Below the pieces are notes generated by a model. That model saw only the letters and a list, made by a program, of their open reading frames with translations, was not told the DNA's origin and did not search any database. A DNA stretch of 64,000 bases from an uncultured Gammaproteobacteria bacterium (GTDB lineage Bacteria > Patescibacteriota > Microgenomatia > UBA10105 > UBA927): NCBI GenBank assembly GCA_964394685.1, contig CAYMYO010000001.1, positions 128,132 to 192,131 on the forward strand. The letters run 5' to 3'. This document shows positions 9,016 to 47,947 of this stretch, piece by piece. Positions within the stretch are counted from its first letter, which is position 1. Each line of letters opens with the position of its first letter. A program made the position numbers and the translations under genes.

Positions 9016-9658
9016 ACCCATGTGGTATGCGTTTACAAAGAGGTGTGTTGATATTTTAGGTGGACTGACCATCAGTCTTGTGTTTCTCCCGGTTTCTCTT
9101 GTTACAGCCATTGCCATCATCCTTGATAGTCCCGGACCTATTTTTGCAGACACCCCAGAGCGGGTTGGTAAGGGGGGAAAATTATTTAAACTGTATAAAT
9201 TCCGTTCAATGATCGTAAACGCCCATTCTATGCTTCGATGTGATCCAACAATGAAGAAATTGTATGAAGAGTACCGGCATAATAGTTATAAATTGAAAAA
9301 AGATCCACGAGTAACACGTGTCGGTCGGTTTATCAGAAAACACTCGATTGATGAAATCCCACAATTATTAAACGTGCTATGGGGAGATATGAGTTTAGTT
9401 GGTCCACGGCCATACTACCCCGATGAACTCAGGGAGCAGCAAAAAAAATATCCTCATACAAAAGAACTCGTAAAAATCGTGTTGTCTGCTAAACCAGGAG
9501 TTACCGGTTATTGGCAAGTGTCAGGAAGAAGTGAAGTAAATTTCGATAAACGAATTCAAATGGACGCGGAATACGTCATACGACGATCATTACTTTTTGA
9601 TATTATCATTATGCTTAAAAGCCCTTGGGCTATGATTTCAGGAATTGGTGCCGTATAA
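8999..9658 (+). CDS. Polyprenyl-phosphate sugar-1-phosphate transferase (bacterial sugar transferase, WbaP/CpsE C-terminal-domain type).
   Basis: One N-terminal TM helix, then [27 protein letters not shown]...[21 protein letters not shown], the hallmark of the Bac_transf family. The ORF opens at 8972; the start is placed at 8999 (MKNLPEP). Confidence 0.8.
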
Positions 9659-9668
9659 TATCTACGAC

Positions 9669-11645
9669 ATGCCGCAAGAACTCAAAAAAATTATCATTAA
9701 TACAACAGTAACTCCAAAATCTGTAGAAAAAACTAATAAAAGATTCCCGTGGAAGTTTGTTATTATTCCACTTGTCATTATCCTCATCGTTTTTGTTGTC
9801 ATTGGCGTTATGCTCCTTCCTCTTCGAGGTGTTATAGCTAAATCGAAGGATCTTTCAACGTCCGCCCGCGTTACGATGGATGCAGTTAAATCGCAGGATC
9901 TTGAAAAAACAAAAGCAGGGCTTACCGAAACAAGGAGCAAGCTGGTGGAGCTAGAAACTGAATATAAAAAGGTATTACCTTTGAAGGTAATACCTTTTCT
10001 TGGAGCGTATATAATTGATGGAGAGCACGTCATCAAAGCCGGTTTTGCAGGCCTTACTGCAGGAGACAAAGCCATTGAGGCTATTGAACCCAATGCAGAT
10101 TTATTGGGACTTAAAGGAACAAAAAAAACGACGTTTCTTGAAGGAAGCGCAGAGGACAGGTTGCAGTTTGCAGTCAAAACCATGAGTGTTCTTATTCCAA
10201 AGATTAACGAAATGGCAACGAGTGTTGATACACTTCGGAAGGAAATATCCCAAATTGACCCAAAAAGATATCCAGAAAAAATTGGGAAAACTGTTATTCG
10301 TTCAAAACTCATATCAGGCATCGCAGTTATTGAAGAAACAGCAAACTTATTTGTGAATGCTCAACCGCTTCTTGTCAATCTTCCGTCGCTTCTTGGCGAG
10401 CCGAAAGAAAAGCGCTATCTAGTATTATTTCAAAACGATAAAGAACTTCGTTCAACAGGAGGCTTTATCACTGCATATGCGCAGTTTCGTATGGTGCGGG
10501 GCAAACCAGTGCTTGAAAAAGCAGATGATATTTACGCACTTGATGCGTCCATAGCAAAAAAATTTACCGCTCCACGGGAGATTCTCACTTTTCACAAGGG
10601 CGTATATAATCTCAATATCCGCGACAGCAATCTCTCACCTGACTACAAACTTTCAATGCAGAAGTTTGAAGAAATGTACACATATGCAAGTGGAAAGGAA
10701 AAAATTGACGGAATTATCGCAGTTGATACCCATGTTCTTGTTGAGGCATTAAAAATTTTAGGTCCGATGTACATTTACGGCAGAGAATTTAGTGCGGTTA
10801 TTGATAAACGGTGCGATTGTCCAAAGGCGGTATATGAACTGGAAGATTATTCTACAAGACCTGTTAATTATGTAAGGACCGCACGAAAAGATATTATAGG
10901 AGTCCTTCTCCAGCAAATTCTTCGTATGGCTTTGGGAGTATCCCCGTCAAAATATTGGGGAAATCTGTTCCAAATGCTCATTGCTGAGATTAATCAAAAA
11001 CATATCGTAGCCTATTTTCATGATGACGCGACTCAGAAAGCAGCAGAGAGTTTTAATTTGGCTGGTCGGATTATGACCGCAAGCGAATCCGCAGCGGTAC
11101 TTAAATATAAAGAGAATGACGGATGGGATTATCTGCATATAAATAACAGCAATATGGCTGGTGCTAAATCCAATATGTTTGTGTCAAGCAAGGTAATGAA
11201 AGATACAACAGTTAATGGTGATGGAACAATCACAACAAAGTTAACAATTGATTATAAAAATCCGTATCCGGGTTCTGACTGCGGACTGGAAAGCGGCGGA
11301 CTCTGCTTAAACGCACCGCTTCGTAATTGGGTGCGTGTGTATGCGCCGGTTGGAAGCAAGCTAACTGATAATAAAGGAGCAATATCTCCAAAAGACGGAA
11401 AGCCAACGAGCTTGGAAACATATGATAGTCTCGGAAAAACTGTATTTGAAGGATTTCTTATTGTTAATCCGATGGGGACGGCAAAATTAGAACTCACGTA
11501 TATAAGTCCTGTAAAACTACAAGGAACATATAAGTTACTTATTCAAAAACAACCAGGAACAAATGATGAAGAATATGCCATTAAACTCAATGGGAAAGAA
11601 CGAAAACGAGCACCACTGGTTACTGATACGGAATATATTTTCTAA
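9669..11645 (+). CDS. Hypothetical membrane-anchored, mostly extracytoplasmic protein (~660 aa).
   Basis: Single N-terminal TM helix (FVIIPLVIILIVFVVIGVMLL), then a coiled-coil-like stretch and a large soluble domain that includes a CDCPKAVYELEDY motif. No family is confidently recognised. The ORF opens at 9645. Confidence 0.5.
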   Translation: MPQELKKIIINTTVTPKSVEKTNKRFPWKFVIIPLVIILIVFVVIGVMLLPLRGVIAKSKDLSTSARVTMDAVKSQDLEKTKAGLTETRSKLVELETEYKKVLPLKVIPFLGAYIIDGEHVIKAGFAGLTAGDKAIEAIEPNADLLGLKGTKKTTFLEGSAEDRLQFAVKTMSVLIPKINEMATSVDTLRKEISQIDPKRYPEKIGKTVIRSKLISGIAVIEETANLFVNAQPLLVNLPSLLGEPKEKRYLVLFQNDKELRSTGGFITAYAQFRMVRGKPVLEKADDIYALDASIAKKFTAPREILTFHKGVYNLNIRDSNLSPDYKLSMQKFEEMYTYASGKEKIDGIIAVDTHVLVEALKILGPMYIYGREFSAVIDKRCDCPKAVYELEDYSTRPVNYVRTARKDIIGVLLQQILRMALGVSPSKYWGNLFQMLIAEINQKHIVAYFHDDATQKAAESFNLAGRIMTASESAAVLKYKENDGWDYLHINNSNMAGAKSNMFVSSKVMKDTTVNGDGTITTKLTIDYKNPYPGSDCGLESGGLCLNAPLRNWVRVYAPVGSKLTDNKGAISPKDGKPTSLETYDSLGKTVFEGFLIVNPMGTAKLELTYISPVKLQGTYKLLIQKQPGTNDEEYAIKLNGKERKRAPLVTDTEYIF

Positions 11646-12218: not shown

Positions 12219-13526
12219 ATGAGCGTCCTTGATAAAATTATTTCTCTAACCAAACGCCGTGGGTTTGTATTTCCAACCAGTGATATCTATGGTGGTATTG
12301 CAGGATTTTATGATCTCGGACCAACCGGTGTACTTTTTGCTAAACACATCAAAGATTTGTGGTGGAAAGATTTGGTGCAATCACGAGATGATGTGGTCGG
12401 ACTTGATTCGAGCATCATCCTCAATCCAAAAACATGGGAAGCGTCTGGGCATGTATCAGCATTTACAGACCCCTTAGTTGAATGCAAATTGTGTCATGAG
12501 CGGCTACGGGCTGATCAGGAAGATGAAATTGCAGATCATGTCAAAAAACATTCCTCGCGGGGAGAAACGAATATCGTTTGGACTGAACCTAGACAATTTA
12601 ATCTTCTATTTAAGACGTATGTAGGGCCTGTTGAGGATTCGAAAAGTATCGCGTACCTTCGAGGTGAAACATGTCAAGGAATTTATTGTAATTTTGTAAG
12701 TGTCATGGCTTCAACTAGGGTGAAAATCCCTTTTGGTATTGCGCAGATTGGAAAAGCGTTCAGAAATGAAGTAACACCGGGAAAATTTCTTTTTCGGCTT
12801 CGCGAATTTGAACAGATGGAACTGGAGTATTTTGTGCGTCCGTTAGAGGCCGAAAAAGCATTTGTCTACTGGAAAGAAGAGCGTATGAAATGGCATCTGT
12901 CTCTTGGTTTATCCAAAGATAAATTGCGATTCCGTCAACACGAAGCCACTGAGCGAGCACACTATGCAGCTGATTCTTGGGATATTGAGTATGATTTTCC
13001 GGACTGGGGTTTTAAAGAGCTTGAGGGAATAGCAAACCGTACGGATTATGATCTAAAAACGCATGGAAAATGGAGTGGGAAGGACCTTTCAGTTATTGAT
13101 CCGGATACGAATGAGAGATATATCCCATATGTTATTGAACCGTCGGTTGGCGTCTCGAGACTTATGCTCGCGCTTTTTATAGATAGCTTTGTGAAAGAAG
13201 AAAAACGGACAGTACTCAAGCTCAAACCAGCTCTCGCTCCGTATCGTGTAGCGGTATTTCCGCTTTTAGCCAATAAACCGGAGTTAATAGCAAAAGCCCA
13301 GTTGATATACCATGCTATGAAAAAGCTATATAGCGCGACATGGGATGATCGTGGAAATATTGGAAAACGGTATCTGGCTCAAGATGAAATTGGAACGCCG
13401 TGGTGTGTGACCGTTGATTTTACGACTCTTGTTGATGATACAGTAACGATTCGGAACCGTGATACGACAAAACAAGACCGTATTTCTATTTCAAAGGTAT
13501 CTGCATATATAGATATGCATATATAG
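12219..13526 (+). CDS. glyQS: Glycine--tRNA ligase, dimeric (GlyQS/eukaryote-like) type.
   Basis: N-terminus MSVLDKIISLTKRRGFVFPTSDIYGGIAGFYDLGPTGV. Class II motifs FRNE and GIANRTDYDL. A possible extended -10 TGATACAAT lies just upstream (12203-12211). Confidence 0.85.
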   Translation: MSVLDKIISLTKRRGFVFPTSDIYGGIAGFYDLGPTGVLFAKHIKDLWWKDLVQSRDDVVGLDSSIILNPKTWEASGHVSAFTDPLVECKLCHERLRADQEDEIADHVKKHSSRGETNIVWTEPRQFNLLFKTYVGPVEDSKSIAYLRGETCQGIYCNFVSVMASTRVKIPFGIAQIGKAFRNEVTPGKFLFRLREFEQMELEYFVRPLEAEKAFVYWKEERMKWHLSLGLSKDKLRFRQHEATERAHYAADSWDIEYDFPDWGFKELEGIANRTDYDLKTHGKWSGKDLSVIDPDTNERYIPYVIEPSVGVSRLMLALFIDSFVKEEKRTVLKLKPALAPYRVAVFPLLANKPELIAKAQLIYHAMKKLYSATWDDRGNIGKRYLAQDEIGTPWCVTVDFTTLVDDTVTIRNRDTTKQDRISISKVSAYIDMHI

Positions 13527-15318: not shown

Positions 15319-15603
15319 ATGAAAAAAATAATTATTACGCTCAGTGCTATTACCATATGTCTTCTTGTGGCTCAGATTGTATATTCAAGTATGTTAGTGG
15401 GAGACGGAAAAGCAATTCGACGTATTGATCAAAGAATTACTGAAATGAAAGGAACAACTGCGTTGTTAGCTGAACAGGTAGCTTCCGCTTCATCGCTTCT
15501 TGTAGTTCACAATAAAGCCCTTTCTATGGGATTTACAGAAAAACCAAAAGTTATGACCATCCACAAAGATCAGTTTGTAGCGAGCCTCGTTCCTGTACAA
15601 TAG
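15319..15603 (+). CDS. ftsL: FtsL-like small bitopic cell-division protein.
   Basis: 94 aa with an N-terminal TM helix then a coiled-coil-like segment. It sits between rsmH and ftsI as in canonical dcw clusters. GGAG-like RBS upstream. Confidence 0.5.
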   Translation: MKKIIITLSAITICLLVAQIVYSSMLVGDGKAIRRIDQRITEMKGTTALLAEQVASASSLLVVHNKALSMGFTEKPKVMTIHKDQFVASLVPVQ

Positions 15604-35728: not shown

Positions 35729-36868
35729 ATGTTAATTAAGCCTGATATTGCACGGTTCGCAAAAATAAAAGTCGTTGGCCTCGGAGGCGGCGGAAGCAAT
35801 GCAGTAAACTCCATGATGCTCACAAACACCATTAAGGGTGTTGATTTTATTGCAGTGAACACTGACGCACAGGCGCTTCTCACAAATCAAGCACAAACAA
35901 AAGTACAAATCGGAGAAAATTTAACGCGCGGTCTTGGAGCCGGAGGTGATCCTGAAATAGGTCGACAAGCAGCTGAAGAATCAAGAGAAAAATTAAAAGA
36001 ATATTTACGGGATTGCGATATGGTTTTTATAACGTGCGGAGAAGGGGGTGGTACCGGCACCGGAGCAGCACCGATTATTGCTGAGATTGCCAAAGAACAG
36101 GGAGCACTCACTATTGCTGTGGTGACAAAACCGTTTCGATTTGAAGGAACGAGACGAATGATGACAGCTGAAGAAGGGATCATGAATTTAAAAAATAAAG
36201 TCGATACGCTTATTATTATTCCCAATCAACGGCTTTTGGAAGTTATCGATAAAAAAATGACGCTGATTGAGGCGTTCCGTGTAGCAGACTCAGTGCTTAC
36301 ACAGGGGGTTCAGGGAATTTCGGATCTTATTACCATGCCAGGGCTTATCAACGTTGACTTTGCAGACGTTCGAACGGTGATGACAAATGCCGGATCAGCC
36401 CTCATGGGAATGGGAACAGGAGTAGGGGAAAATAGAGCCGCAACGGCTGCCCGTACTGCGTTTACATCACCACTACTTGAATTATCTATTGAAGGAGCAA
36501 AAGGAGTACTCTTTAACATTATCGGTGGAAATGATTTGACCATGGCGGAAGTAGATGAAGCAGCAAAGCAAATAGCTGCACAAGTTGATCCTGATGCAAA
36601 TATTATTTTCGGAGCAACCATAGATGAATCAATGGTTGATCAAGTGAAAATAACGATTATCGCAACAGGATTTGATGAAACAAAAAGAAAACTTCGGGAG
36701 ATGACAGCCAATCGACAACAAACACAGACAACATTTGCGCAACCATTTATCCGTCAACCGGTTCAAACGCAAGCAAATGGTGATAAAACAGTGCTTCCTG
36801 TTGCTGAGGATATCCCACCAGAAGAAGACGAATTCGACATTCCCGCATTTCTTCGTCAAAGGAATTAA
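35729..36868 (+). CDS. ftsZ: Cell division protein FtsZ.
   Basis: KIKVVGLGGGGSNAVNSM and GGGTGTGAAPIIA tubulin signatures. Confidence 0.95.
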   Translation: MLIKPDIARFAKIKVVGLGGGGSNAVNSMMLTNTIKGVDFIAVNTDAQALLTNQAQTKVQIGENLTRGLGAGGDPEIGRQAAEESREKLKEYLRDCDMVFITCGEGGGTGTGAAPIIAEIAKEQGALTIAVVTKPFRFEGTRRMMTAEEGIMNLKNKVDTLIIIPNQRLLEVIDKKMTLIEAFRVADSVLTQGVQGISDLITMPGLINVDFADVRTVMTNAGSALMGMGTGVGENRAATAARTAFTSPLLELSIEGAKGVLFNIIGGNDLTMAEVDEAAKQIAAQVDPDANIIFGATIDESMVDQVKITIIATGFDETKRKLREMTANRQQTQTTFAQPFIRQPVQTQANGDKTVLPVAEDIPPEEDEFDIPAFLRQRN

Positions 36869-36871
36869 TGT

Positions 36872-37417
36872 ATGAAAAATAAAAAAAAAGACAATTTTTT
36901 ACAGGTTGCACAATTGGGACAACCACTGTTACGCAAACAGGCGAAAGAAATTCAAAAAATTACTCCAGATATTCAGCAATTAGCTGGAGATTTAATAGCA
37001 ACACTTATGGATGTGAATGGTGTTGGTATTGCAGCGCCACAAGTGTATGAATCAGTAAGACTTTTCATACTAGCTTCCCACCCAAATCCTCGGTATCCGA
37101 ATGCACCGAATATGAAACCAACTGCAGTAATTAATCCAAAAATCCTTTCTTTTTCAAAAGAAACAGCAAAAGACTGGGAAGGTTGCTTGAGCGTACCTGG
37201 TATACGTGCTCTTGTTCCAAGATCAACAATAATTACAACTGAATATACGACAATATCAGGGAAAATTGTGAAAAAAAGATATAAGGATTTTATCGCTCGG
37301 ATATTCCAACATGAATATGATCATTTAGAAGGGAAAGTATTTTTAGACAGAATCGAAAGTACAAAAGATATTATTACAGATAAAGAGTATTTGAAAATAA
37401 TTGCAAAAAAAGCCTAG
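36872..37417 (+). CDS. def: Peptide deformylase.
   Basis: GVGIAAPQV, EGCLSVPG and HEYDHLEG motifs. Confidence 0.9.
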   Translation: MKNKKKDNFLQVAQLGQPLLRKQAKEIQKITPDIQQLAGDLIATLMDVNGVGIAAPQVYESVRLFILASHPNPRYPNAPNMKPTAVINPKILSFSKETAKDWEGCLSVPGIRALVPRSTIITTEYTTISGKIVKKRYKDFIARIFQHEYDHLEGKVFLDRIESTKDIITDKEYLKIIAKKA

Positions 37418-37431
37418 GATTTCTTCTAGCA

Positions 37432-37494
37432 TTTCAATTGGTTTCCTTGGGGAAGATTGAAGCTAAACGATAGCCCTGTCCTATAAATCCCCGC
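37432..37494. repeat. Copy 1 of a ~63-bp imperfect direct repeat (with partner at 40932-40994).
   Basis: Its 49-nt core ccttggGgaagattgaagctaaACgataGccctgtcCtataaatCcccgc matches the partner with 6 mismatches, all transitions. Weaker similarity extends ~16 bp upstream. It lies immediately 3' of the def stop on the plus strand and the GT2 stop on the minus strand. Confidence 0.6.
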
Positions 37495-38325
37495 TTAAAT
37501 ACTTCTTGAATACGGTCCAAATGAACGAATTACGTAATCCCATAAGGCAGAAAGTGCTCCATGTTCTTTTCTCCTATAATGTTCATATAATGTCTTAGGC
37601 AGCCTTACTAATTCATAAATTTTAACCTTAATTGGAGCCATCCGTTCAACAAATAACATATGGTTACGTGCGAGATAGTATTGATGTGCAGCAGAACCAA
37701 CTCCAACAATCGCCGTATGATAATGCGTTATCCCTTTACGTGGAGTGGCTATTATAGGGAATCCAGCATGATGAGCTCGAACTGAATAATCGGCATCTTC
37801 GTAGTACATAAAATAAGGTTCATAAAAATAACCAATTTTAGCTACAACATCTTTGTGAATTGATAAACATGAACCAGATATATACTCTGGATTATTTTGA
37901 ATTGAGCTATTTTTTTCATTAACTATTGTTGTCCATCGTTTTTTATCAAAAATACCACCAAAAGGTCCTATGATTGATGGACGCATATGCTTAAGTGTTT
38001 TATTTAAGTCAGTTAATGCTTGCTTTGATAAAGACAAATCTTGATTAAGAATAGTTATCCATAAAGCTCCATTTTCAAAAGCTATTCTCATTCCAACATT
38101 CACTCCTCCACCAAAGCCACAATTTTTCTCGTTATTGATGGTAGTAATGTTTTCCTTTTTTATTTTTAATGGGGTTTTTATATCATTATTAATAAGTAAA
38201 AACTTTTGTCTCTTAAGACTTTTAAGAAGCTTTGATAATACAATTATATTTGGTTTAAATATTGGAATAATAAAATAATGAATCATATATTTATTATTTG
38301 ATAGTAACGTTTCTATTTTTATCAA
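37495..38325 (-). CDS. Glycosyltransferase family 2.
   Basis: N-terminal GT-A domain (...KNCGFGGGVNVGM...) with a DxD-like YEDAD motif. Minus strand, in the repeat-flanked cassette. Confidence 0.65.
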   Translation of the reverse strand: MIKIETLLSNNKYMIHYFIIPIFKPNIIVLSKLLKSLKRQKFLLINNDIKTPLKIKKENITTINNEKNCGFGGGVNVGMRIAFENGALWITILNQDLSLSKQALTDLNKTLKHMRPSIIGPFGGIFDKKRWTTIVNEKNSSIQNNPEYISGSCLSIHKDVVAKIGYFYEPYFMYYEDADYSVRAHHAGFPIIATPRKGITHYHTAIVGVGSAAHQYYLARNHMLFVERMAPIKVKIYELVRLPKTLYEHYRRKEHGALSALWDYVIRSFGPYSRSI

Positions 38326-38335
38326 GACCTGATTT

Positions 38336-39505
38336 CTATTTCATCATGTCTTCTATATATTTTTCTAATCTTATAGTTGCACTATCCCATGTCCAATAAG
38401 GTAAAATGGAATTTCTTGATTGTTTCGCGATTTTACCGTATAAAGAATGATCAGTTAGTAATATATTTACGGCTTTTGCAAGACTTCGTTCGTCTCTTTC
38501 AACCAATAAGCCATTTATTCCATCTGTCACAATATCTCTGTATCCACCTTCTTTAACAGCAATAACAGGTGTTCCGCATGCCATAGCTTCGAGTGCAGAT
38601 AACCCAAGAGTTTCTAGATGAGCGCCGCAAATAACAATTTTTGCTTTATTATATAAACTGACCATATCTTCATCAGGTACTCTAGATACAATCTTTAATG
38701 TAACCTTCTTACTTAAAGCATACTGTTCTAAATAGACTTTTCGATCTAAATTGATACCACCACTCGATATGATTAATTTTGGTCTTCCCTTTGTTTTTAA
38801 TAACGCAAGGGAGTCTATAATGAATTCGTGCCCTTTGTGAATAGATAAATTTCCGACGCTAAAGACATAATCCTCTTTACTTACTCCAAGATGTCTAAAT
38901 AGCTTCATATCAACACCAAGATGACAAATGGACGCATATACACCGTAAGCACGATAAACGGATTCCTTAGATGAGTACGAGTTAACCAAGATTTTATCCA
39001 TCTTTCTTGCGTTCTTAAGATCATTTTGTTTTCTCCAATTGTCCGACAGCCTAAGCAATATTGTTTGAATGCTACATCCTTTTTCTTTTAATGGGTTAAG
39101 GTTGTATTCATAATAAATTCTCCACGGTTCTTGGCAATAATATATAGACTTACATTTCAAATAATGACTTAGAAATGGAGTTTGAATATATGTATCGTGA
39201 GATACAAACACTAAATCATACTTTCGTTTGTTTATATCGTCAGCTATTTTTCTATGGATACTTTGAAGTTTTATAAATAAGTTATAATCCTCCTCTAAGC
39301 GTAACAGTGGTCCACCTTTTATAACAGATAATTTATTGACGTTATAAACGTATTTTTTTTTGAAGTAACTATTTTGAATTGTTGCATCACTTAATGTGTA
39401 GAGATCTAAGTTATATTTTAAAGTTAATCTCTTTGAAAATTCCTCTATCGTTTTTAGTCCACCTCCAGGTGGCAGATTATGATAAAACGCAATTTTTTTC
39501 TGCAT
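38336..39505 (-). CDS. Glycosyltransferase family 4.
   Basis: C-terminal ...GLSALEAMACGTPVIAVKEGG... motif. Minus strand. Confidence 0.8.
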   Translation of the reverse strand: MQKKIAFYHNLPPGGGLKTIEEFSKRLTLKYNLDLYTLSDATIQNSYFKKKYVYNVNKLSVIKGGPLLRLEEDYNLFIKLQSIHRKIADDINKRKYDLVFVSHDTYIQTPFLSHYLKCKSIYYCQEPWRIYYEYNLNPLKEKGCSIQTILLRLSDNWRKQNDLKNARKMDKILVNSYSSKESVYRAYGVYASICHLGVDMKLFRHLGVSKEDYVFSVGNLSIHKGHEFIIDSLALLKTKGRPKLIISSGGINLDRKVYLEQYALSKKVTLKIVSRVPDEDMVSLYNKAKIVICGAHLETLGLSALEAMACGTPVIAVKEGGYRDIVTDGINGLLVERDERSLAKAVNILLTDHSLYGKIAKQSRNSILPYWTWDSATIRLEKYIEDMMK

Positions 39506-39524
39506 AAATGATGTTAGGAATCGA

Positions 39525-40772
39525 TTACGATAATATCGTACGTCTATTTTCTAAGAAATATGCAATTCCCAGTATAGTAAATAATAGAAATTCACTAACT
39601 ACCGTTATATAACTTGAAGCTATATATCCATATTTTGGTATAAATAATAGATTTAAAATAAAATTCAATATTAAGGAAACGCTAAGACCAATGATAATTA
39701 TGGAAATTTTCTTATTTATTAAGAAATAGTAATATATAATATTATCGATACAAAGGAGTGGAACAGTAAAGATAAGAATTCTAAGGCTGCTAGCACTGTT
39801 TACAAATTCTTTTCCAGCAAAAATATTTACAACAATTGGAGCGAAGATATAGCCCATAATCACCACTATAAGTGAAAATATAATTGAAATCCAAAGCGAG
39901 CTCCGTAATAGATAATTAAATTGTGTTTTATTATTCTTTGAGCTAGCTAATAGTGGATACACACTTGCCATATAGAATGCCCAAAGTATAATGATATTTT
40001 CAAATAGTTTATATGAGAAGCTATATATTCCCACATCTGAGGCTGACTTCATTACCGACAGCATAAGGGTATCAACCTTAAAGCTTAAAGTTGCCAATAA
40101 CGATGCCACACCAATAGGGAAGGATACTTTAATTATCTTCTTAATTAAATCCAACGATGGAACAGTGGATAAGTGAAAATATGTTGGCGTTAAATATATG
40201 TTCAATAATGTGTTAACTATATTTCCAATTAAAACAGATAAAATAATTGCGTTTAACCCCAAATGCAACAAAATTACTATAATAATTGCAAGTATAGTTA
40301 CAATTCGATTAATTACGTCTAACAATGCTACCAGATCAAGCTTAACTTGCGCCTGAAGTACAGAGGCTCCATAACCATTTATCTGCCCAACTCCTACAGC
40401 AATAGAACCAATAAGAATTGTCATTTTAATTGTTTGTGAGTATGGAAAAAAGATTAATACTATAAGTGATAACAAGACTGAAATAATCGTAAAGATTACT
40501 TTCAGGGAAAAATAGGTGGATTTAAGTTTATCTGACGTTACAGAATTACCAGATAAATCTCGAACGAGAGTAAGTTGAAGTCCAAAATCAGCAAATATAC
40601 CAAAAAAAGCCAGATATGCGAAAACAAGATTATATACACCATATTGGGCAACACCTAAATATCTAGTTAAAAGACCTACCATCAGCAAACCAAGGACGAC
40701 AGTTGTAGCTTTTGCGAATATTTGGCTAGATGTATTAATGAATATCCGTCTGAATATCTGATTTTTTTCCAT
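39525..40772 (-). CDS. wzx: Polysaccharide/O-unit flippase, MOP superfamily (Wzx-like).
   Basis: 415 aa with ~12 TM helices and the N-terminal ...FAKATTVVLGLLMVGLLTRYLG... typical of polysaccharide biosynthesis (Polysacc_synt) flippases. Minus strand. Confidence 0.7.
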   Translation of the reverse strand: MEKNQIFRRIFINTSSQIFAKATTVVLGLLMVGLLTRYLGVAQYGVYNLVFAYLAFFGIFADFGLQLTLVRDLSGNSVTSDKLKSTYFSLKVIFTIISVLLSLIVLIFFPYSQTIKMTILIGSIAVGVGQINGYGASVLQAQVKLDLVALLDVINRIVTILAIIIVILLHLGLNAIILSVLIGNIVNTLLNIYLTPTYFHLSTVPSLDLIKKIIKVSFPIGVASLLATLSFKVDTLMLSVMKSASDVGIYSFSYKLFENIIILWAFYMASVYPLLASSKNNKTQFNYLLRSSLWISIIFSLIVVIMGYIFAPIVVNIFAGKEFVNSASSLRILIFTVPLLCIDNIIYYYFLINKKISIIIIGLSVSLILNFILNLLFIPKYGYIASSYITVVSEFLLFTILGIAYFLENRRTILS

Positions 40773-40931
40773 GTTAATGTGCTTAGAGTATCATATTTTT
40801 CAGCTGGATGGTATTAATTGCTATAAATTACTTTAAAGAAAGTGAATTGGATTTATTGCCAATTACTTCAATCAATTTGCTTCAGACGTAATTCTCTGTT
40901 ATCTTTTAGGTGAAGGCTTAAAAATGTATTG

Positions 40932-40994
40932 ATTCTCATTGATTGCCTTGGAGAAGATTGAAGCTAAGTGATAACCCTGTCTTATAAATTCCCG
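40932..40994. repeat. Copy 2 of the ~63-bp imperfect direct repeat (with partner at 37432-37494).
   Basis: Core ccttggAgaagattgaagctaaGTgataAccctgtcTtataaatTcccgc. It lies 3' of the minus-strand GT87 gene and 5' of the minus-strand wzx-GT4-GT2 cassette. Confidence 0.6.
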
Positions 40995-41020
40995 CATTCT
41001 TACGACAAAGAAATTAACAT

Positions 41021-42142
41021 TTACAAAAAAATTCCGCTTCTTCTCAGATTCCTTTTTATGGCAAGCAGCCATAAAATGAATGCTCCGATAAAGGGATGGG
41101 AGAACATCAGCATATGGGAATTTGTGAATGCTTCGGGAGTACGAATGTGAAATGACGTTAATGCGTATACAAGAACAAGCAATAATTTTTCTATCGTACT
41201 TGTTGTTGTGGCCCATAAGACAATCAAAAGCGGAATAAGAATAACGTAATGGTGAAACCATGAAAAACTGGAAAGAAACAGGAGAACTGAGAATATTAAT
41301 CCGAAATACGATAAGGATTTATTTTTTGATTTAAGAAATAAAAATAGCGAAGTAGTTGTAAAAATAAGTCTCAACAATAAACGGATGTCTGAGGAAAAGT
41401 GTAAACGCAATAAAAAACTATTGAGCGATTGATCAAAGTAGGCTCTCTCTCCTCCTTGAAGAAAAAGATTTCCGCCGATTACGCCGAAATACGAAGTTAC
41501 GATGGCAGGCGTAAAAATCAATAGTGTCAATCCCAGACCAACAAGAATAGTGATGACAAAACTCAGAATCGTTTTCCATTTCTTTTCCTTTATAAAAAAG
41601 AGAATGAGGAAACACGGAAAAATTTTGATAAGCGTTGCTATTCCAAGAAGAATCCCTGGCAACACGTCCCTGTTTTTTCGGAAAAAGTAAAAAGACGCGG
41701 TCAGCAGCAAAAGAATAACAAGATTGATCTGCCCGAGTGTCAGCGTAAATTTTACCGGAAAATATTGTATAAAACAACTTGAAAGAAGTAAAAATGTAGT
41801 TAACTTTTTTGTTTTCGTAAAAAGCATTCCGGTTAGGAGCCAGACAGCGATAAACAGACTGGCGAGAGAAGACAAAAGGAAAACAAAAGCAGTGATTGTT
41901 TTGGGAAAAAATGTCAACATGAGAAAGAAAGGCAAGCTTGTTGGCGGATAATTAAATGGAATTTGAGAGATATGTGGTTCATACACCTTTCCATGAACTA
42001 AAGCGGTTTTGGCGGCATTGATATAAACGCTCAAATCAACAAAATTATCCGAAAGATAAACAAAATATAGCTTATAAAGTTGCTGACCTAAGGCAGTAAC
42101 AAATATCAGAAAAAGAAAAATGTTAACGAAATTTTTCTTCAT
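41021..42142 (-). CDS. GT-C-like integral membrane glycosyltransferase, DUF2029/GT87-like.
   Basis: 373 aa, ~11 TM helices, with an N-terminal ...DLSVYINAAKTALVHGKVYEP..FNYPPTSLPFF... motif characteristic of DUF2029/GT87 mannosyltransferase-like proteins. Confidence 0.5.
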   Translation of the reverse strand: MKKNFVNIFLFLIFVTALGQQLYKLYFVYLSDNFVDLSVYINAAKTALVHGKVYEPHISQIPFNYPPTSLPFFLMLTFFPKTITAFVFLLSSLASLFIAVWLLTGMLFTKTKKLTTFLLLSSCFIQYFPVKFTLTLGQINLVILLLLTASFYFFRKNRDVLPGILLGIATLIKIFPCFLILFFIKEKKWKTILSFVITILVGLGLTLLIFTPAIVTSYFGVIGGNLFLQGGERAYFDQSLNSFLLRLHFSSDIRLLLRLIFTTTSLFLFLKSKNKSLSYFGLIFSVLLFLSSFSWFHHYVILIPLLIVLWATTTSTIEKLLLVLVYALTSFHIRTPEAFTNSHMLMFSHPFIGAFILWLLAIKRNLRRSGIFL

Positions 42143-42203
42143 AGTGTCTCTCTTTTTTATGATATCATAAGAACAACTAAATACAGTTTTTTATTGTAAA
42201 AAT

Positions 42204-43172
42204 ATGACAATTAACAAAATATGCCAGGTAAAACTCAAGCCGACTGCACCGTTTCATTTTGATGCAACGTTTCATAAGCCAGCTCATTTTGCTTCAGGAG
42301 ATAATTATTGGGAATCCGGTGCTCGATGGCAGACATTTCGTTTTTTGGAGAAAAATCTAGGCGTGGTGTTTAGAAATACTGGTTCTGTTGATAAGCCTTT
42401 TATAGAAGTTGAGATCTATAGCAGTAAAACATTGTCCAAAGAATTCGTCGATACATTTATCAACGAGATTAGATATAGATATAATCTTGACCTTGATCTT
42501 AATGATTTTTATAAGCGTTTCTTTAAAGATAAGATACTGGGTCCAGTAATCAAGAAAATTCGTGGAATGCGGCCTGGTCATCAGGATTCGCTTTATGAAT
42601 ACTTAATGATTGGTATTCTGTTACAAAATTGCACTGTTCGCAGGTCAATACAGATGATGCAGTCTCTTTTCGAAAAATACGGCACATTATTGGAATTTGC
42701 TGGAAAAAAACTGTGGTGTTTTTGGGAGCCGGGACATCTGAAAAATATTACAGAGGATGAGCTACGCGCATTAAAGCTAGGGTACCGTGCAAAATCTATT
42801 AAAAAGGTTGATGATTACTTTTCACAAGGTCTTATCAATGAAATGGACCTGCGGAAAAAAGATAAGGATACTCAGATGAAAGAGTTGTTAAAACTTTACG
42901 GTGTTGGACCAGCAACAGTTTGGTACCTATTGTTTGATGTATTTCATCATTTCGATTTTTTCAACCATATTTCTCCGTGGGAGCAAAAAATATATTCGAA
43001 ATTATTTTTTGGTAAAGATCCGGATAAACCAGTTCCCGTTGAAAAACTTCTAAAATATTTTGAGAAGTTTGGCGATTATAAGCAATTGGCTGTGCATTAT
43101 ATTTGGGAAGACTTGTGGTGGAAGCGGAAGAATGAACAAATACCGTGGCTAGAAAAATTAATTAGAACGTAA
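42204..43172 (+). CDS. HhH-GPD superfamily DNA glycosylase (AlkA/Ogg-like).
   Basis: ...DSLYEYLMIGILLQNCTVRRSIQMMQSLFEKYG... (start of the HhH-GPD domain) and the helix-hairpin-helix LLKLYGVGPATVWYLLF followed by acidic residues. Confidence 0.5.
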   Translation: MTINKICQVKLKPTAPFHFDATFHKPAHFASGDNYWESGARWQTFRFLEKNLGVVFRNTGSVDKPFIEVEIYSSKTLSKEFVDTFINEIRYRYNLDLDLNDFYKRFFKDKILGPVIKKIRGMRPGHQDSLYEYLMIGILLQNCTVRRSIQMMQSLFEKYGTLLEFAGKKLWCFWEPGHLKNITEDELRALKLGYRAKSIKKVDDYFSQGLINEMDLRKKDKDTQMKELLKLYGVGPATVWYLLFDVFHHFDFFNHISPWEQKIYSKLFFGKDPDKPVPVEKLLKYFEKFGDYKQLAVHYIWEDLWWKRKNEQIPWLEKLIRT

Positions 43173-43221
43173 ACCGATATTCATGATATGTAAACGCACA
43201 CTGTGATACGATATTTCATAT

Positions 43222-43668
43222 ATGGTATTTCTTCAAAAGAAGATTTCTTGGTTAATCCTTACTATATTTTTTGTTTTTGATAATGTGTTTTCGTATTACG
43301 CAGTTACTAAATTGCATGGTCGTGAGGCCAACTTGCTTATTGCACCATATGTAGAGAAGTGGCCGATTTTATATTTTTTTTGTATTCCCGCTCAGATACT
43401 CATTATTTGGATTATTGTTCGTGGAATTCGGAACGTAGCGATGAAACTATTTTACTTTAAAAATAAACTGTTATTAGAAACAATTATTCTTCAGTCTCTG
43501 GTGATTTATTGGGCAGTTGCTAATTCTTCTATGAATTTTGCCTTCATGATAGGGTATCGGCAATCTATTCAACGTTGGCATGTGCTAACCATTATTGGAA
43601 TATTATGTGCAATTATTAACTTTTTCTATTGTATAATTGGTATATGCAAAAAGAACAAACATGGATAA
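43222..43668 (+). CDS. Hypothetical small polytopic membrane protein.
   Basis: 148 aa with four hydrophobic helices. No recognised family. Overlaps the next ORF by ~40 bp. Confidence 0.35.
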   Translation: MVFLQKKISWLILTIFFVFDNVFSYYAVTKLHGREANLLIAPYVEKWPILYFFCIPAQILIIWIIVRGIRNVAMKLFYFKNKLLLETIILQSLVIYWAVANSSMNFAFMIGYRQSIQRWHVLTIIGILCAIINFFYCIIGICKKNKHG

Positions 43669-45101
43669 ATAAAAATAGTTTTGTTTTGCTTCTTATCTGG
43701 TGTTTTGTGTTGACTATCCTTTACAGCACACTATCTATTCTTCGCCATATGCATTTTCAGTCCGGAGGATTTGATCTCGGGCTCTATGATCAGGCTGTAT
43801 GGAAATTCGGACATTTGCAAGGTGCATATAACACTGTGAAGCAACGGATTATCTTTGGCGACCATTTTGTTTTGACGCTTCCTTTATTTGGACTTCTTTA
43901 TTATATCTGGGATGATGTACGGCTACTCCTTATTATGCAGGCAGGAGCAATTGTGTTTTCAGCAATTCCCATGTTTCTTATTGCCAAACGAAGATTAAAT
44001 TCCAAAATTGCAGCGCTTTGTATTGCAGTTATCTATAGTCTGTTTTATGGAATCCAATACGGCGTGTATTTTGATTTCCACCCCATTCTTATTGGTGTAG
44101 CTATTCTTTCGTATCTTGCATACTTTTGGGAATCAGAGAAAAAGACGTTGTTTTGGATCACGTTGGTAATTGCTCTTGCAACACAAGAGAATATGGGAAT
44201 AGCTGTTACTGGACTTGCTGCTATCTTTTTTTTCCGAAAAAAACATTGGAAACAGGCAATTATCGTCGGAACTATTGGGCTTTTCTATAGTTTTATTTCA
44301 ATGAAAATTATTTCACGATTTTCACCAGTTGGTTATGAGTATGTACCACAATTGCCTACAACGGTGCGTGATGCGTTTTTACGATTGTTTGATAGTGAAG
44401 AAAAAAGACTGGTATGGCTGTATAGTTATTCGCAATTATCATTTGTGCCGCTTCTTTCTCCGGGAAGTCTGATAGCAGTCTTCATGGATGTATCCCAGTA
44501 TTTTGTAACAGGTCCTGAATTTAGCCGTATGTGGAGCCCGTTTATGCATCACAGGGCTATCCTGGCACCATTTCTTGTTTTGGGAACGATTGATGTACTT
44601 TCATATTTCAAAACTAAAATAAAATATATAACAATTATATCGCTTATACTGTTGATGATATCGCTTGGAACGCAATATTATTTTCATTTCCCCCTAAATA
44701 AACTCGTAAAAGCTGACTATTGGAAAGAAGAAGCGTGGATGAATGACACTCGTGCTATGGTTTTATCGATTCCAAAAGAATTCAGCATTGCCACTCAGCA
44801 AAATTTAGTTCCGCATCTAACGCACAGAAATGAAATATATCTTATTTATCCCAGAGAGCATAATATTACAGAATCTCCCTGCGGACAAACTCTTTGTTGG
44901 TGGTTGGATTTCGGTGGGAAACCAGAATATTTAGTAGTTGATACCAGACCAAATCAGTGGCTCACGCAAATATTGGAAACAAATGAAAATTGGAATGCAG
45001 CAATAACTAATATGGAACGAGTGGGTAGAATAGTGCTTGTTCGGCAAATTGGTTTTATGAAATTATTTAAAATTAATTATGATAAAGGTAACGTGTATTG
45101 A
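43629..45101 (+). CDS. DUF2079-like integral membrane protein (putative GT-C-like transferase).
   Basis: ~490 aa with an N-terminal ...RHMHFQSGGFDLGLYDQAVWKF... motif typical of DUF2079 family proteins. Many TM helices, then a C-terminal soluble domain. Confidence 0.45.
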   Translation: MYNWYMQKEQTWINKNSFVLLLIWCFVLTILYSTLSILRHMHFQSGGFDLGLYDQAVWKFGHLQGAYNTVKQRIIFGDHFVLTLPLFGLLYYIWDDVRLLLIMQAGAIVFSAIPMFLIAKRRLNSKIAALCIAVIYSLFYGIQYGVYFDFHPILIGVAILSYLAYFWESEKKTLFWITLVIALATQENMGIAVTGLAAIFFFRKKHWKQAIIVGTIGLFYSFISMKIISRFSPVGYEYVPQLPTTVRDAFLRLFDSEEKRLVWLYSYSQLSFVPLLSPGSLIAVFMDVSQYFVTGPEFSRMWSPFMHHRAILAPFLVLGTIDVLSYFKTKIKYITIISLILLMISLGTQYYFHFPLNKLVKADYWKEEAWMNDTRAMVLSIPKEFSIATQQNLVPHLTHRNEIYLIYPREHNITESPCGQTLCWWLDFGGKPEYLVVDTRPNQWLTQILETNENWNAAITNMERVGRIVLVRQIGFMKLFKINYDKGNVY

Positions 45102-45118
45102 TATAATATCTTCTAGAT

Positions 45119-47947
45119 ATGTCTACCTCACTTAAAATCACTAATTTTCAGGAAAAAATAGACCTAGCGAAAAAAGAGCATGAGGTATTAACGTTTTGGG
45201 ATGAAACGAAAGCGTTTGAGATGTCAGTATCCAGTAGACCCGAATACAAACGATATGTATTTTATGACGGACCTCCATTTGCTACAGGCCTTCCGCATTA
45301 CGGACATATTCTTGCGTCAACGGTTAAGGACGTATTTCCGCGGTACTTTACCATGAAAGGGTATCGAGTTGAACGGGTATGGGGTTGGGATTGTCATGGG
45401 CTTCCTATTGAAAATATCATCGAAAAGGAACTCAATTTGAAAGGCGGAAAAAAAGGGATTGAAGCGTTGGGAATTGATATATTTAATGCGGCATGTCGCG
45501 CTGCGATACTACGATTTGATCGCGAATGGGAAAAAGTCATACGGAGAATTGGCCGATGGGTTGACTTTACTCATTCCTACAAAACCATGGATATGAAATA
45601 TATGGAGTCTGTCTGGTGGGCGTTTAAAACACTTTTTGAAAAAGGACTTGTGTATGAGGGGCGGAAAGTTATTTTGTATTGTCCCAGATGCGCAACACCA
45701 TTATCCAATTTTGAAATTGCGATGGACAACAGTTACAAAGACATTGACGAACCATCAACAACGTATAAATTTAAAGCTTCGGATGCAAAAGACACTTATT
45801 TTCTTGCCTGGTCTACGACCCCATGGAATAAGCTGGTCACAACAGCTCTTGCAGTTAATCCGAATTTTACGTATGTCTATGTAAAACAAGGAAATGAAAC
45901 ATATGTATTGGCTGAGACAAGACTTTCGATGCTTATTGATTCACCATGCGAGATCGTAAAAAAAGTTCAGGGATCAGAACTTCACGGCATGAAGTATGAA
46001 GCGCTCTATGATTTTTATCCAAACCGAACAAAGGACGAGCAGGCCTTTATTGTTGTCGCTGATGAATACGTTACGGCAACAGAAGGAACAGGTATTGTCA
46101 CTCTTGCTGTGTATGGAGAAGAAGATTACCGGGTTATGAAAAAACATCACATTCAACTAGCTGAGCATGTTGATATGGAAGGAAAACTGAAAAAAGAGGT
46201 TACGCCATGGCAAGGAATGTATATAGTAAAAGCTAATCCTCTTATCGATGAAGATCTTAAAAAACGTGGTCTTCTATATAAAGAGGAACACATAACGCAC
46301 AGTGTTCCTACGTGTTACCGATGTGAAACACGACTTTATTATGCGCCAATTCCAGCTTGGTTTATTGATGTGCAAAAGATGAAATCAGATCTTATCGCAC
46401 AAAACAAGCATATTCATTGGTATCCGGAGTATTTAAAAGAAGGAAGATTCGGAAAGGGGCTTGAACAAGCGCCTGATTGGAACATTTCAAGAAGCAGATA
46501 TTGGGGAACACCGATGCCAGTATGGAAAAATCAGGAATCGATACGTATGATTGAATCGATAGAAGAGTTAAGGAAATGGGCAGTAGATATTGATAAAGTG
46601 TCAAAGCTTACAGACATCCATAGGGAATATTTGGATGATATTGAAGTATGGGTTGACGATGCAAAGACAATCAAGGGGAGAAGAATTCCTGAAGTTTTTG
46701 ATTGTTGGGTGGAATCCGGCAGTATGCCGTATGCATCCATTCACTATCCATTTGAAAACAAGGAAAAATTTGAGTCCACGCACCCGGCGCAATTTATTTC
46801 TGAATATATCGCGCAAACCCGCGCATGGTTTTATACGCTTCACGTGATGTCAGTTGGTTTATTTGGAACCCATACATTTGAACATGCGGTAACGTCAGGA
46901 ACAATACTTGCTGAAAACGGGGATAAAATGAGTAAATCAAAACGCAATTTTCCAGATCCATCGCTTGTGTTTGAAAAATACGGCGTGGATGCCTTGCGAT
47001 TTTATCTTATGAATTCTGTTGTCATGAAAGCAGAAAATATTAATTTTTCAGAAGACGGTGTCAAGGAAGTGTATCAGAAAATTATTAGTATTTTATGGAA
47101 TGTTTGCACCTTTTATAAACTGTATGTTCCCGGTAAAGTTATTGTTGAACCTAAATCAAAACACGTATTAGATAGATGGATAGTCAGTCGAACAAATTCT
47201 CTTATTATTGCGGTGACAACGGCATTAGATGCATATGATACGGTTTTCGCATGTCACGAAATAAGTAATTTTATTAGTGATTTGTCAACATGGTATGTTC
47301 GAAGAAGTCGTGATCGAATAAAATCTGATGCGATAACTCAGCAAACATTAGGATGGGTATTAACAACTCTTTCTAGAGTCATGGCCCCAATTACACCATT
47401 TATCAGCGAACTTATTTATCAAAACGTCGTAGGTGAAGGAAAGTCTGTTCATCTTGCATTATGGCCGAAAGCAAATGGAGTAAGTGATGCCGGTCTTGAA
47501 CATGATATGGTGTTTGTCCGGCAGCTTGTTGAACAAATTCATGCCGTAAGAAAAGAAAAGGGCATCCCTGTCAAACAACCGCTTTCAAAAGTAACTATAT
47601 ATTCTAAAAAAAATAATATTTCTCCGGAATTCGAAGTATTGATCCTGGAGGAAGTAAACATCAAAGCAGTTGTTTGGGGGGCTAGTGAAAAAGAATTACG
47701 AATAGAACTTGATACGACAATAACGCCGGAATTGAAGGCTGAAGGAGACGTGCGGGAACTGATTCGGGCGGTGCAGAATGTACGTAAGACTCAAAAGCTT
47801 GGAATTACACAGCACATTCCAACACTGCAAATACCAAATATGTACAAACATCTAACAGAAACGCAAATTACGCATATTCAAAAGATAACGCTTTCAGATA
47901 CAATTGTATGGAACGACACCCTCGCTATTACGACTGGTCAACAATAA
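45119..47947 (+). CDS. ileS: Isoleucine--tRNA ligase, type 2 (eukaryote/archaea-like).
   Basis: Class I HIGH region FYDGPPFATGLPHYGHIL, KMSKS (DKMSKSKRNFPDP) and a large editing domain. The N-terminus matches type-2 IleS; the C-terminus lacks a Zn-finger. Confidence 0.75.
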   Translation: MSTSLKITNFQEKIDLAKKEHEVLTFWDETKAFEMSVSSRPEYKRYVFYDGPPFATGLPHYGHILASTVKDVFPRYFTMKGYRVERVWGWDCHGLPIENIIEKELNLKGGKKGIEALGIDIFNAACRAAILRFDREWEKVIRRIGRWVDFTHSYKTMDMKYMESVWWAFKTLFEKGLVYEGRKVILYCPRCATPLSNFEIAMDNSYKDIDEPSTTYKFKASDAKDTYFLAWSTTPWNKLVTTALAVNPNFTYVYVKQGNETYVLAETRLSMLIDSPCEIVKKVQGSELHGMKYEALYDFYPNRTKDEQAFIVVADEYVTATEGTGIVTLAVYGEEDYRVMKKHHIQLAEHVDMEGKLKKEVTPWQGMYIVKANPLIDEDLKKRGLLYKEEHITHSVPTCYRCETRLYYAPIPAWFIDVQKMKSDLIAQNKHIHWYPEYLKEGRFGKGLEQAPDWNISRSRYWGTPMPVWKNQESIRMIESIEELRKWAVDIDKVSKLTDIHREYLDDIEVWVDDAKTIKGRRIPEVFDCWVESGSMPYASIHYPFENKEKFESTHPAQFISEYIAQTRAWFYTLHVMSVGLFGTHTFEHAVTSGTILAENGDKMSKSKRNFPDPSLVFEKYGVDALRFYLMNSVVMKAENINFSEDGVKEVYQKIISILWNVCTFYKLYVPGKVIVEPKSKHVLDRWIVSRTNSLIIAVTTALDAYDTVFACHEISNFISDLSTWYVRRSRDRIKSDAITQQTLGWVLTTLSRVMAPITPFISELIYQNVVGEGKSVHLALWPKANGVSDAGLEHDMVFVRQLVEQIHAVRKEKGIPVKQPLSKVTIYSKKNNISPEFEVLILEEVNIKAVVWGASEKELRIELDTTITPELKAEGDVRELIRAVQNVRKTQKLGITQHIPTLQIPNMYKHLTETQITHIQKITLSDTIVWNDTLAITTGQQ

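Follow-up and report, generated by a model that had tools for sequence, protein, structure and literature searches.

The stretch analysed here (hereafter the window) comprises 64,000 nt of contig CAYMYO010000001.1 (assembly GCA_964394685.1, positions 128,132 to 192,131) and carries a division and cell wall (dcw) cluster in which ftsW, murG, ftsQ, ftsA and ftsZ precede the peptide deformylase gene def. Beyond def lie three minus-strand genes encoding a GT2 glycosyltransferase, a GT4 glycosyltransferase and a Wzx-type flippase, then GT87, an HhH-GPD glycosylase gene and an open reading frame (ORF) of 148 aa, before the conserved backbone resumes at DUF2079 (Table 1). Two imperfect direct repeats bracket the GT2-GT4-Wzx cassette. 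The original prediction, made from the letters of the window, had offered two explanations for them: recombination anchors or att-like scars of a swappable, serotype-switch-like polysaccharide cassette, or a structured RNA at the 3' terminus of transcripts from the minus strand. Our comparison with relatives makes it quite likely that the repeats are attR-type scars, the integrase-distal termini of islands whose target is the final codons of ftsZ in one clade of the ultra-small groundwater bacteria Candidatus Gottesmanbacteria, and that the cassette is low-GC cargo of an island remnant devoid of integrase.

A repeat search leaves no doubt that the pair is real, since it locates both copies (37437-37494 and 40938-40995; 58 nt, 86% identity, spacing 3501), and Pfam agrees with the predicted arrangement of GT2, GT4 and Wzx on the minus strand between them with GT87 next. 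The second of the two intervals first proposed was off by 1 nt, the in-register interval being 40933-40995. A 29-nt core pattern has no third site in the 64 kb, and shuffles predict 0. In register, the 49-nt core (37446-37494 vs 40947-40995) differs at six positions, all of them transitions, exactly as had been noted, while the full 64-nt overlap of the copies holds nine transitions and two transversions. Because the transition fraction across the whole element family is only 0.55 (395:328), the transition-only core is a small-sample effect and not a property of the element. Three features had been overlooked: copy 2 is far longer (40871-41021 by nhmmer), copy 1 is only a fragment, and full copies, including that of the window, end in the last nine codons of ftsZ plus the stop. 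Copy 1 is cut at both ends and lacks the 5' arm as well as the ftsZ-tail remainder; it holds just the first eight bases of the tail (ATCCCCGC) and stops right at the stop codon of GT2. A copy from a relative is truncated at the same two places (L082b, 5633-5699 of L082; L-numbers designate fetched relative loci or contigs).

Table 1. Features around the repeats in the window and of the whole island in L110, each in the coordinates of its own locus
Locus	Feature	Position	Strand	Evidence or remark
Window	ftsZ, last gene of the dcw cluster, proposed island target	35729-36868	+	Pfam Tubulin and FtsZ_C
Window	True ftsZ tail, ATT CCC GCA TTT CTT CGT CAA AGG AAT TAA (IPAFLRQRN plus stop)	36839-36868	+	Putative attB-type site
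Window	Shared core ATTCCCGC within true ftsZ tail	36839-36846	+	
Window	def (peptide deformylase), first accessory gene after ftsZ	36872-37417	+	Pfam Pep_deformylase
Window	Copy 1, truncated element	37431-37496	+	nhmmer, profile positions 67-132
Window	Copy 1, block 4 ATTGGTTT	37437-37444	+	Block coordinates
Window	Copy 1, block 5 GAAGATTGAAGCTAA	37452-37466	+	Block coordinates
Window	Copy 1, left half-site and core CCTGTCCTATAAATCCCCGC	37475-37494	+	Block coordinates
Window	GT2 glycosyltransferase, cargo	37495-38325	-	Pfam Glycos_transf_2
Window	GT4 glycosyltransferase, cargo	38336-39505	-	Pfam Glycos_transf_1, E 3e-32
Window	Wzx-type flippase, cargo	39525-40772	-	Pfam Polysacc_synt, E 1.4e-24
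Window	Copy 2, full-length, putative attR-type element	40871-41021	+	nhmmer E 1.7e-38, family alignment
Window	Copy 2, promoter-like TTGCTT	40877-40882	+	
Window	Copy 2, block 2	40894-40907	+	
Window	Copy 2, block 3 GAAGGCTTAAAAATGTATTGA	40912-40932	+	
Window	Copy 2, block 4	40938-40945	+	
Window	Copy 2, block 5	40953-40967	+	
Window	Copy 2, core-type site: TGTCTTATAAAT, TCCCGC, ATTCTTACGACA	40978-40989, 40990-40995, 40996-41007	+	9/12 dyad
Window	ftsZ tail copy, presumably displaced, ATT CCC GCA TTC TTA CGA CAA AGA AAT TAA (IPAFLRQRN plus stop)	40988-41017	+	
Window	Remaining accessory interval (GT87, HhH-GPD, 148-aa ORF)	41021-43668		
Window	GT87	41021-42142	-	Pfam
Window	HhH-GPD glycosylase	42204-43172	+	Pfam
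Window	148-aa membrane ORF	43222-43668	+	No Pfam match
Window	DUF2079 membrane protein; conserved backbone resumes at ~43661	43629-45101	+	Pfam, nucleotide homology
L110	ftsZ, tail ATCCCCGCATTCCTACGGCAGAGGAATTAG (start ATCCCCGCATTCCTACGG)	8652-9821		
L110	Island left end	GACAGAACGCTCCAATCTCTCC		
L110	Integrase	10001-11023		Seven small ORFs follow
L110	Element, tail ATCCCCGCATTCCTCAGGCAGCGGAATTGA (start ATCCCCGCATTCCTCAGG)	15335-15479		Then more genes and DUF2079

Copies of the element were gathered with blastn and nhmmer on the fetched loci and with one pattern scan of metagenome contigs; the window itself belongs to a Candidatus Gottesmanbacteria genome (Microgenomates), and its FtsZ is 80% identical to that of the closest representative. 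By nhmmer the element is found twice in the window, three times in L001, twice each in L081, L082 and L096, and in L083-L088, L097 and L110, and it was not found in the 79 ftsZ loci of wider relatives (L002-L080). Wherever the context is visible (the window, L001, L081, L086/L097, L096 and L110) it lies downstream of ftsZ at a distance of no more than a few kb and points the same way; its direction tracks ftsZ and not the neighbouring gene. Family alignments give a full length of ~150 nt: two promoter-like hexamers (TTGACT-N17-TACATT) come first, followed by block 3 GAAGACTTAAAAATGTATTGA, block 4 ATTGGTTT, block 5 GAAGATTGAAGCTAA, eight variable bases, CCTGTCCTATAAATCCCCGC and the remainder of an ftsZ tail, and conservation ends at the stop codon of that tail. 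Nearly all copies also conserve within block 3, the best conserved of the blocks, a mini-ORF, ATG TAT TGA (Met-Tyr-stop; e.g., window 40924-40932). Short degenerate pieces of the element occur at L100 5145-5183, L086 4433-4484 and 8515-8615, L082 613-652 and 807-889, and L106 11520-11580, the last being CTTCCTATAAATTCCCTTATTTCTAAGGCAGTGAAATTAA after a 106-aa ORF; judging from these pieces, scars of the element seem commoner than intact copies.

In the repeat search, positions 40988-41031 of copy 2 match 36839-36882, the true 3' end of ftsZ, and over the 30 nt of the tail proper (36839-36868 vs 40988-41017) the two direct repeats agree at 25 positions, both encoding IPAFLRQRN and a stop; against the real tail of L081 the copy agrees at 26 of 30. 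An in-frame TAA precedes the tail of copy 2, which is therefore not translated within a longer ORF. IPAFLRQ(R/K)N followed by a stop is encoded by eight of ten full element copies, and codon differences between pairs of tails are synonymous in 190 cases vs 42 non-synonymous ones. In the other two frames only ~10% of differences are synonymous, none of 2000 column shuffles reached the observed fraction, and the 60 nt preceding the tail show a non-coding pattern (52:373). Tail copies resemble the ftsZ tails of other genomes no less than that of their own. Local gene conversion with the resident ftsZ is disfavoured on this ground, to the point that we ruled it out, and trans-acting antisense pairing with ftsZ was ruled out on the same ground. 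A small ORF with the FtsZ peptide at its C-terminus was likewise rejected, the in-frame TAA being present before the tail in 13 of 15 copies, as was an origin of the arm as a decayed FtsZ linker, given that the C-termini of 18 relatives hold no RLKL..PVL-like sequence and that the arm lacks a coding-type substitution pattern. A second tail encoding DIPAFLRQRN plus a stop lies inverted 1.7 kb downstream of ftsZ in L006, a member of the Levyibacteriota (12841-12873, minus strand); it differs from the real tail by eight synonymous and no non-synonymous changes and has no recognisable element arm. From this case, the ftsZ tail may be a target of different elements in other Microgenomates lineages.

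The interval in which the repeats lie is a hotspot. The backbone order is dcw cluster, ftsZ, DUF2079, ileS and rodA, and among genomes whose FtsZ is 82-96% identical to that of the window the interval between ftsZ and DUF2079 holds 0 to 11 genes. L104 and the contigs that are its sisters, with 82% identity in FtsZ, have nothing there, DUF2079 following ftsZ by 62 nt. Relatives with 94-96% identical FtsZ differ wholly in gene content: TMEM43, HhH-GPD and GT87 in the L090 group, a 104-aa ORF and TMEM43 in L100, eleven genes including a radical SAM gene flanked by two elements in L096, and ten genes in L097. Nucleotide homology between the window and L090, L100, L096, L097 and L104 ends at 36868/36869, i.e., at the ftsZ stop codon, and resumes at ~43661. 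Empty and occupied sites are thus both seen in relatives, with the junction at the repeat, as for islands that target a 3' end. The other arrays carry Fic and Bro-N proteins, a PD-(D/E)XK nuclease, restriction-modification methylases, GmrSD/HNH, DUF3800, a dockerin protein, an ABC transporter and an AlkD-like gene. The cassette of the window stands out by its guanine-plus-cytosine (GC) content, 0.29-0.33 vs 0.38-0.44 for the backbone, and its GT2 gene has no homologue among the other ~110 loci.

Where the incoming DNA joins ftsZ can be read from two near-identical relatives. L090 and L093 encode the same FtsZ protein and their ftsZ genes show no mismatch over nt 1-1119; six mismatches, all synonymous, are then packed into the last 21 nt (positions 1122-1140), and the DNA beyond is unrelated. 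The break thus falls immediately after ATCCCCGCATT, and the incoming DNA brings an ftsZ tail of its own. The same point recurs elsewhere: similarity is lost after ATCCCCGC(A) in both truncated copies, copy 1 of the window and L082b, and in L084 a tail followed by def is homologous to the true ftsZ tail and def, starting exactly at ATC. These breaks lie in a site of 12-6-12 layout, TGTCCTATAAAT-(C/T)CCCGC-ATTTTTGAGACA, whose right half consists of FtsZ codons. Its dyad symmetry averages 8.2 of 12 over 12 copies vs 3.3 +/- 1.6 at random positions, only 0.13% of which reach nine matches or more. Such a layout is the usual one for the core site of a tyrosine recombinase, and cleavage would be expected inside YCCCGC or at its edges.

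An integrase is indeed found at this site in relatives. It came to light after ftsZ only through the comparison of L090 and L093, and then through homologues of the L093 fragment. In L093 the swapped tail is followed by inverted, diverged element blocks 3-5 and then by an ORF for the N-terminus of a tyrosine integrase, with hits to three models of the SAM-like N-terminal domain of integrases, all of them under the gathering score. Members of the family lie 130-245 nt after ftsZ in L003 (ftsZ, integrase), L107 (ftsA, ftsZ, integrase), L108/L109 (ftsZ, integrase; Phage_integrase E 6e-30) and L110, the domain scoring E values of about 1e-30 to 1e-34 among relatives. L083 has the catalytic domain (E 1.9e-31) at one contig end and the element at the other. 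The family counts at least 258 members of ~338 aa, mostly from Gottesmanbacteria and other Patescibacteria, and is Xer-like: its nearest solved relatives are Xer-type recombinases, although scores against XerC, XerD and XerA (102, 111 and 135 bits) stay below the cut-offs (335, 330 and 220), as do those against two integron-integrase models (73 and 47 bits vs 265 and 435). It occurs in a minority of ftsZ loci, inside variable DNA. In two independent contigs, L108 (918-1804) and L109 (371-1257), the integrase beside ftsZ is split into two overlapping frames of 147 and 151 aa, which points to a pseudogene with a frameshift or else to an assembly error common to both. L110 preserves a whole island, in which the two ftsZ tails share a 14-nt identical direct repeat, ATCCCCGCATTCCT, followed by synonymous differences. 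The left ends of integrase-bearing islands, once reverse-complemented, align with element blocks 3-5 and so form imperfect terminal inverted repeats of ~65 bp.

As we picture it, the attachment site of such an island would be a conserved arm of ~120 nt (blocks 1-6) followed by the core TGTCCTATAAAT-(C/T)CCCGC-ATTTTTGAGACA. A Xer-like tyrosine integrase encoded at the other end of the island would exchange strands between island and ftsZ tail, either within ATYCCCGC or directly beside it, so that ftsZ would gain a synonymous tail supplied by the island and FtsZ would retain its C-terminal IPAFLRQRN, while the old tail would be displaced beyond the conserved arm, at the island's far end. The circular attP expected from this scheme reads ...CCTGTCCTATAAATCCCCGC + tail + GAYAGAACGCTCCAATCTC..., and repeated insertions with later deletions would leave arrays of ends between blocks of accessory genes. 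Copy 2 would then be an attR-type junction, the right end of an island followed by the displaced tail, and copy 1 the remains of the right end of a neighbouring unit that contained def, stripped of its 5' arm and of everything after the core, probably by a deletion; the order of these insertions is inferred, as is the truncating deletion. With no integrase, no left end and no right half-site in copy 1, the GT2-GT4-Wzx cassette is probably fixed and immobile by now. The window is filed as a remnant, and not as an intact member of the tyrosine-integrase islands of 3' ends, because the integrase that relatives carry is missing from it.

Of the two original explanations, the one by recombination holds in its essentials, though not in all its parts. 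That the repeats are att-like scars agrees with islands that target the ftsZ 3' end, with the differing contents of relatives and with an integrase at the same site. They are not anchors specific to a polysaccharide cassette, since cargo of other kinds (Fic, restriction-modification, radical SAM, ABC transporter and more) is delimited by this element too. The serotype-switch-like module was not borne out: the state expected of it, a relative with the cassette gone and one repeat left, was not found among the loci, and in L084 def faces GT87 across a terminator-like hairpin with no element between them. In L084 def is preceded by an element tail instead of ftsZ, and the first accessory position is taken by def solely in the window, L001 and the L084 lineage; none was found downstream of ftsZ in L002-L011, L090, L096, L097, L100 and L104.

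Several observations weigh against the island interpretation as set out above. In the 64 kb of the window, neither tblastn at E<=10, which returned noise only, nor a motif screen detected an integrase or a remnant of one, and an inverted left end is missing too, so that the window shows scars alone; Pfam scans likewise detected no integrase among the array cargo of L001, L081, L082, L085 and L086. Copy 1 does not resemble the clean product of two full sites, wanting the 5' arm, the right half-site and the tail remainder. In the window and in L001 def directly follows the true ftsZ stop and the elements lie downstream of it, so that def, too, has to be taken as presumed island cargo. The integrase is short (340 aa) and has no obvious arm-binding domain, which leaves the long conserved arm unexplained. 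Neither a circular nor an excised form was observed. Finally, a two-gene cassette of L001 (13326-14565) is ~95% identical to that of L086 (4447-5680) on backbones that are ~74% identical, which indicates recent lateral exchange, and the exchanged piece is bounded on both sides by block 3 and not by the core. That boundary fits homologous recombination between elements as well as integrase action.

A bolder version of the island interpretation is that in this clade the ftsZ tail serves as a gene-capture platform, where blocks devoid of integrase, each with the ~150-nt element at its end, would be moved, reordered and exchanged among lineages by a Xer-like integrase that any island in the population could provide in trans. 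We regard this as tentative and on balance rather unlikely. If it were true, an essential cell-division gene would be the anchor of an integron-like system, and this in bacteria regarded as having few mobile elements; the coding-type conservation of every tail copy would reflect selection, since each of them may one day serve as the functional end of FtsZ.

Less probable still is the view that the elements are portable homology, i.e., nothing but conserved stretches where gene blocks are exchanged, gained or lost by homologous recombination with DNA taken up from relatives, with no site-specific step behind the arrangement in the window. The L001/L086 exchange with block 3 on both sides speaks for it, as do the absence of integrase from most arrays and the swapped order of GT87 and HhH-GPD between the window and L090, where no element is present between the two genes. 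It would leave unexplained, however, the ftsZ tail with its coding-type substitutions, the junction of L090/L093 within the tail beside an integrase, the complete island of L110, the dyad-symmetric core and the recurrent break after ATCCCCGC. It could nonetheless operate as a secondary process on existing arrays, and homologous recombination between elements probably does reshuffle them as well, judging from the exchanged cassette. The swapped pair itself (window 41021-43172 vs L090 7559-9639) retains 77-80% nucleotide identity and the same gene orientations; it also occurs, in the swapped order, in L098, and neither gene was found in L096, L097, L100 and L104.

We also considered that the repeats duplicate a regulatory region driving the downstream gene, and we hold this to be very improbable. 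Promoter-like hexamers are conserved in the family alignment (TTGACT-N17-TACATT, and TTGAAG-N19-TATAAA with a GC-rich discriminator), and roughly 8 of 13 copies are followed at 3-200 nt by a gene that runs the same way, such as the AlkD-like gene of L001, Fic of L081, def of L084 and the dockerin protein gene of L086; the element and a downstream HxlR operon are moreover common to L087 and L096. Yet a convergent gene turns its 3' end towards both window copies and towards three others, the window copies fail a consensus promoter scan, and neither the ftsZ tail nor the linkage to an integrase nor the junctions between strains would follow from a promoter. The island end might, in addition to its other features, contain a promoter that reads outward. 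The structured RNA with G-U-tolerated transitions retains next to no credence: both window copies do follow stop codons of minus-strand genes and their six core differences are transitions, but folds of both copies on both strands were no better than shuffles (z +0.3 to +1.05), RNAalifold on 10-12 copies gave no pairs on the plus strand and eight weak ones without compensatory change on the minus strand, Rfam returned no match at E<=10, most other loci have a plus-strand gene upstream, and the family-wide transition fraction is only 0.55; neither a known structured RNA nor an intrinsic terminator was recognised in the element by Rfam, folds or consensus structure.

Other candidates were rejected as well. 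An integron or attC array was ruled out by IntI model scores below cut-offs and by the lack of any fold better than shuffles, and recombination by the host XerC/XerD at dif, in the manner of integrative mobile elements exploiting Xer (IMEX), by scores below the equivalog cut-offs and by the presence of the integrase in only a minority of loci. Inspection of the element by eye found no attC-like or dif-like motif. As regards a phage origin, viral contigs contained no match to either of two element patterns.

Around the hotspot, some further observations deserve mention. Nearly all long ORFs of the window (1-64000) are on the plus strand, and 37495-42142, with three glycosyltransferase genes and the flippase, is among the few minus-strand blocks, an arrangement which fits inserted DNA. 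The 148-aa ORF extends 40 nt into DUF2079 as annotated from a TTG start; because homology to relatives begins only at ~43661, the actual start of DUF2079 is probably further downstream. Next to the hotspot, ileS of the window (45119-47689) shares 35% protein identity and no nucleotide alignment with that of L090 (11130-14069), homology resuming at 47690; elsewhere L090 is close to the window (FtsZ 95.5%, DUF2079 79.5% identical), and the ileS of L097 is of the window type (85%). Hence, in some close relatives a distant type of ileS appears, from these comparisons, to have taken the place of the original one beside the hotspot.

The logic of integration that we propose has well-known counterparts. 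Textbook 3'-end integrators that provide a replacement gene end are e14 or phage 21 in icd of E. coli. In common with e14 at icd, the ftsZ islands have a tyrosine integrase beside the target gene, a crossover inside the coding 3' end and a largely synonymous alternative end that leaves the host protein unchanged, the original end persisting as a direct repeat at the far junction. Unlike e14, they use the C-terminal codons of FtsZ in bacteria of the candidate phyla radiation (CPR)/Patescibacteria, duplicate only ~30 nt, carry accessory and defence genes instead of a phage, and possess a ~120-nt arm, terminal inverted repeats of ~65 bp and frequent remnant arrays without integrase. Staphylococcal cassette chromosome (SCC) elements, i.e., SCCmec and related ones, occupy the 3' end of rlmH/orfX in staphylococci. 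They resemble the ftsZ islands in their tandem or composite arrays downstream of one conserved gene, in repeats that copy its last codons, in the many units without a recombinase of their own and in highly variable cargo; SCC elements rely on large serine recombinases (Ccr), whereas the ftsZ islands would employ a Xer-like tyrosine recombinase, and target gene, host phylum and the much longer conserved end set the latter apart. By analogy, then, the integration logic would match e14/icd-type elements and the array form would resemble SCC composites at rlmH. Arrays of integron cassettes, or clusters of attC sites lacking integron integrases (CALIN), are likewise made of unrelated blocks with one family of recombination sites, a fixed insertion point and mostly recombinase-free units; unlike them, the ftsZ islands have no IntI and no attC-like foldable site, their multigene blocks lie in both orientations and the integrase is inside the mobile unit. 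The dusA-specific integrase islands are reported to insert into the 5' end of dusA with diverse cargo and resemble the ftsZ islands in having a dedicated tyrosine integrase family tied to one conserved protein-coding gene (PMC4482086); the ftsZ islands differ from them by their use of the 3' end of ftsZ and by the restoration of a conserved peptide. No description of ftsZ as an integration target was found in the searchable literature.

Little has been charted of mobile elements and of routes of gene gain in CPR/Patescibacteria. The codons of the conserved FtsZ C-terminal peptide are identified as an integration target, and a second IPAFLRQRN followed by a stop, the ~150-nt element and the integrase family provide annotation markers for such islands. 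The glycosyltransferase and flippase genes of the window thereby become horizontally acquired surface-modification cargo, outside the cell-division operon, and the ftsZ islands account for a hypervariable stretch of accessory genes that occupies one fixed position on the chromosome in CPR/Patescibacteria.

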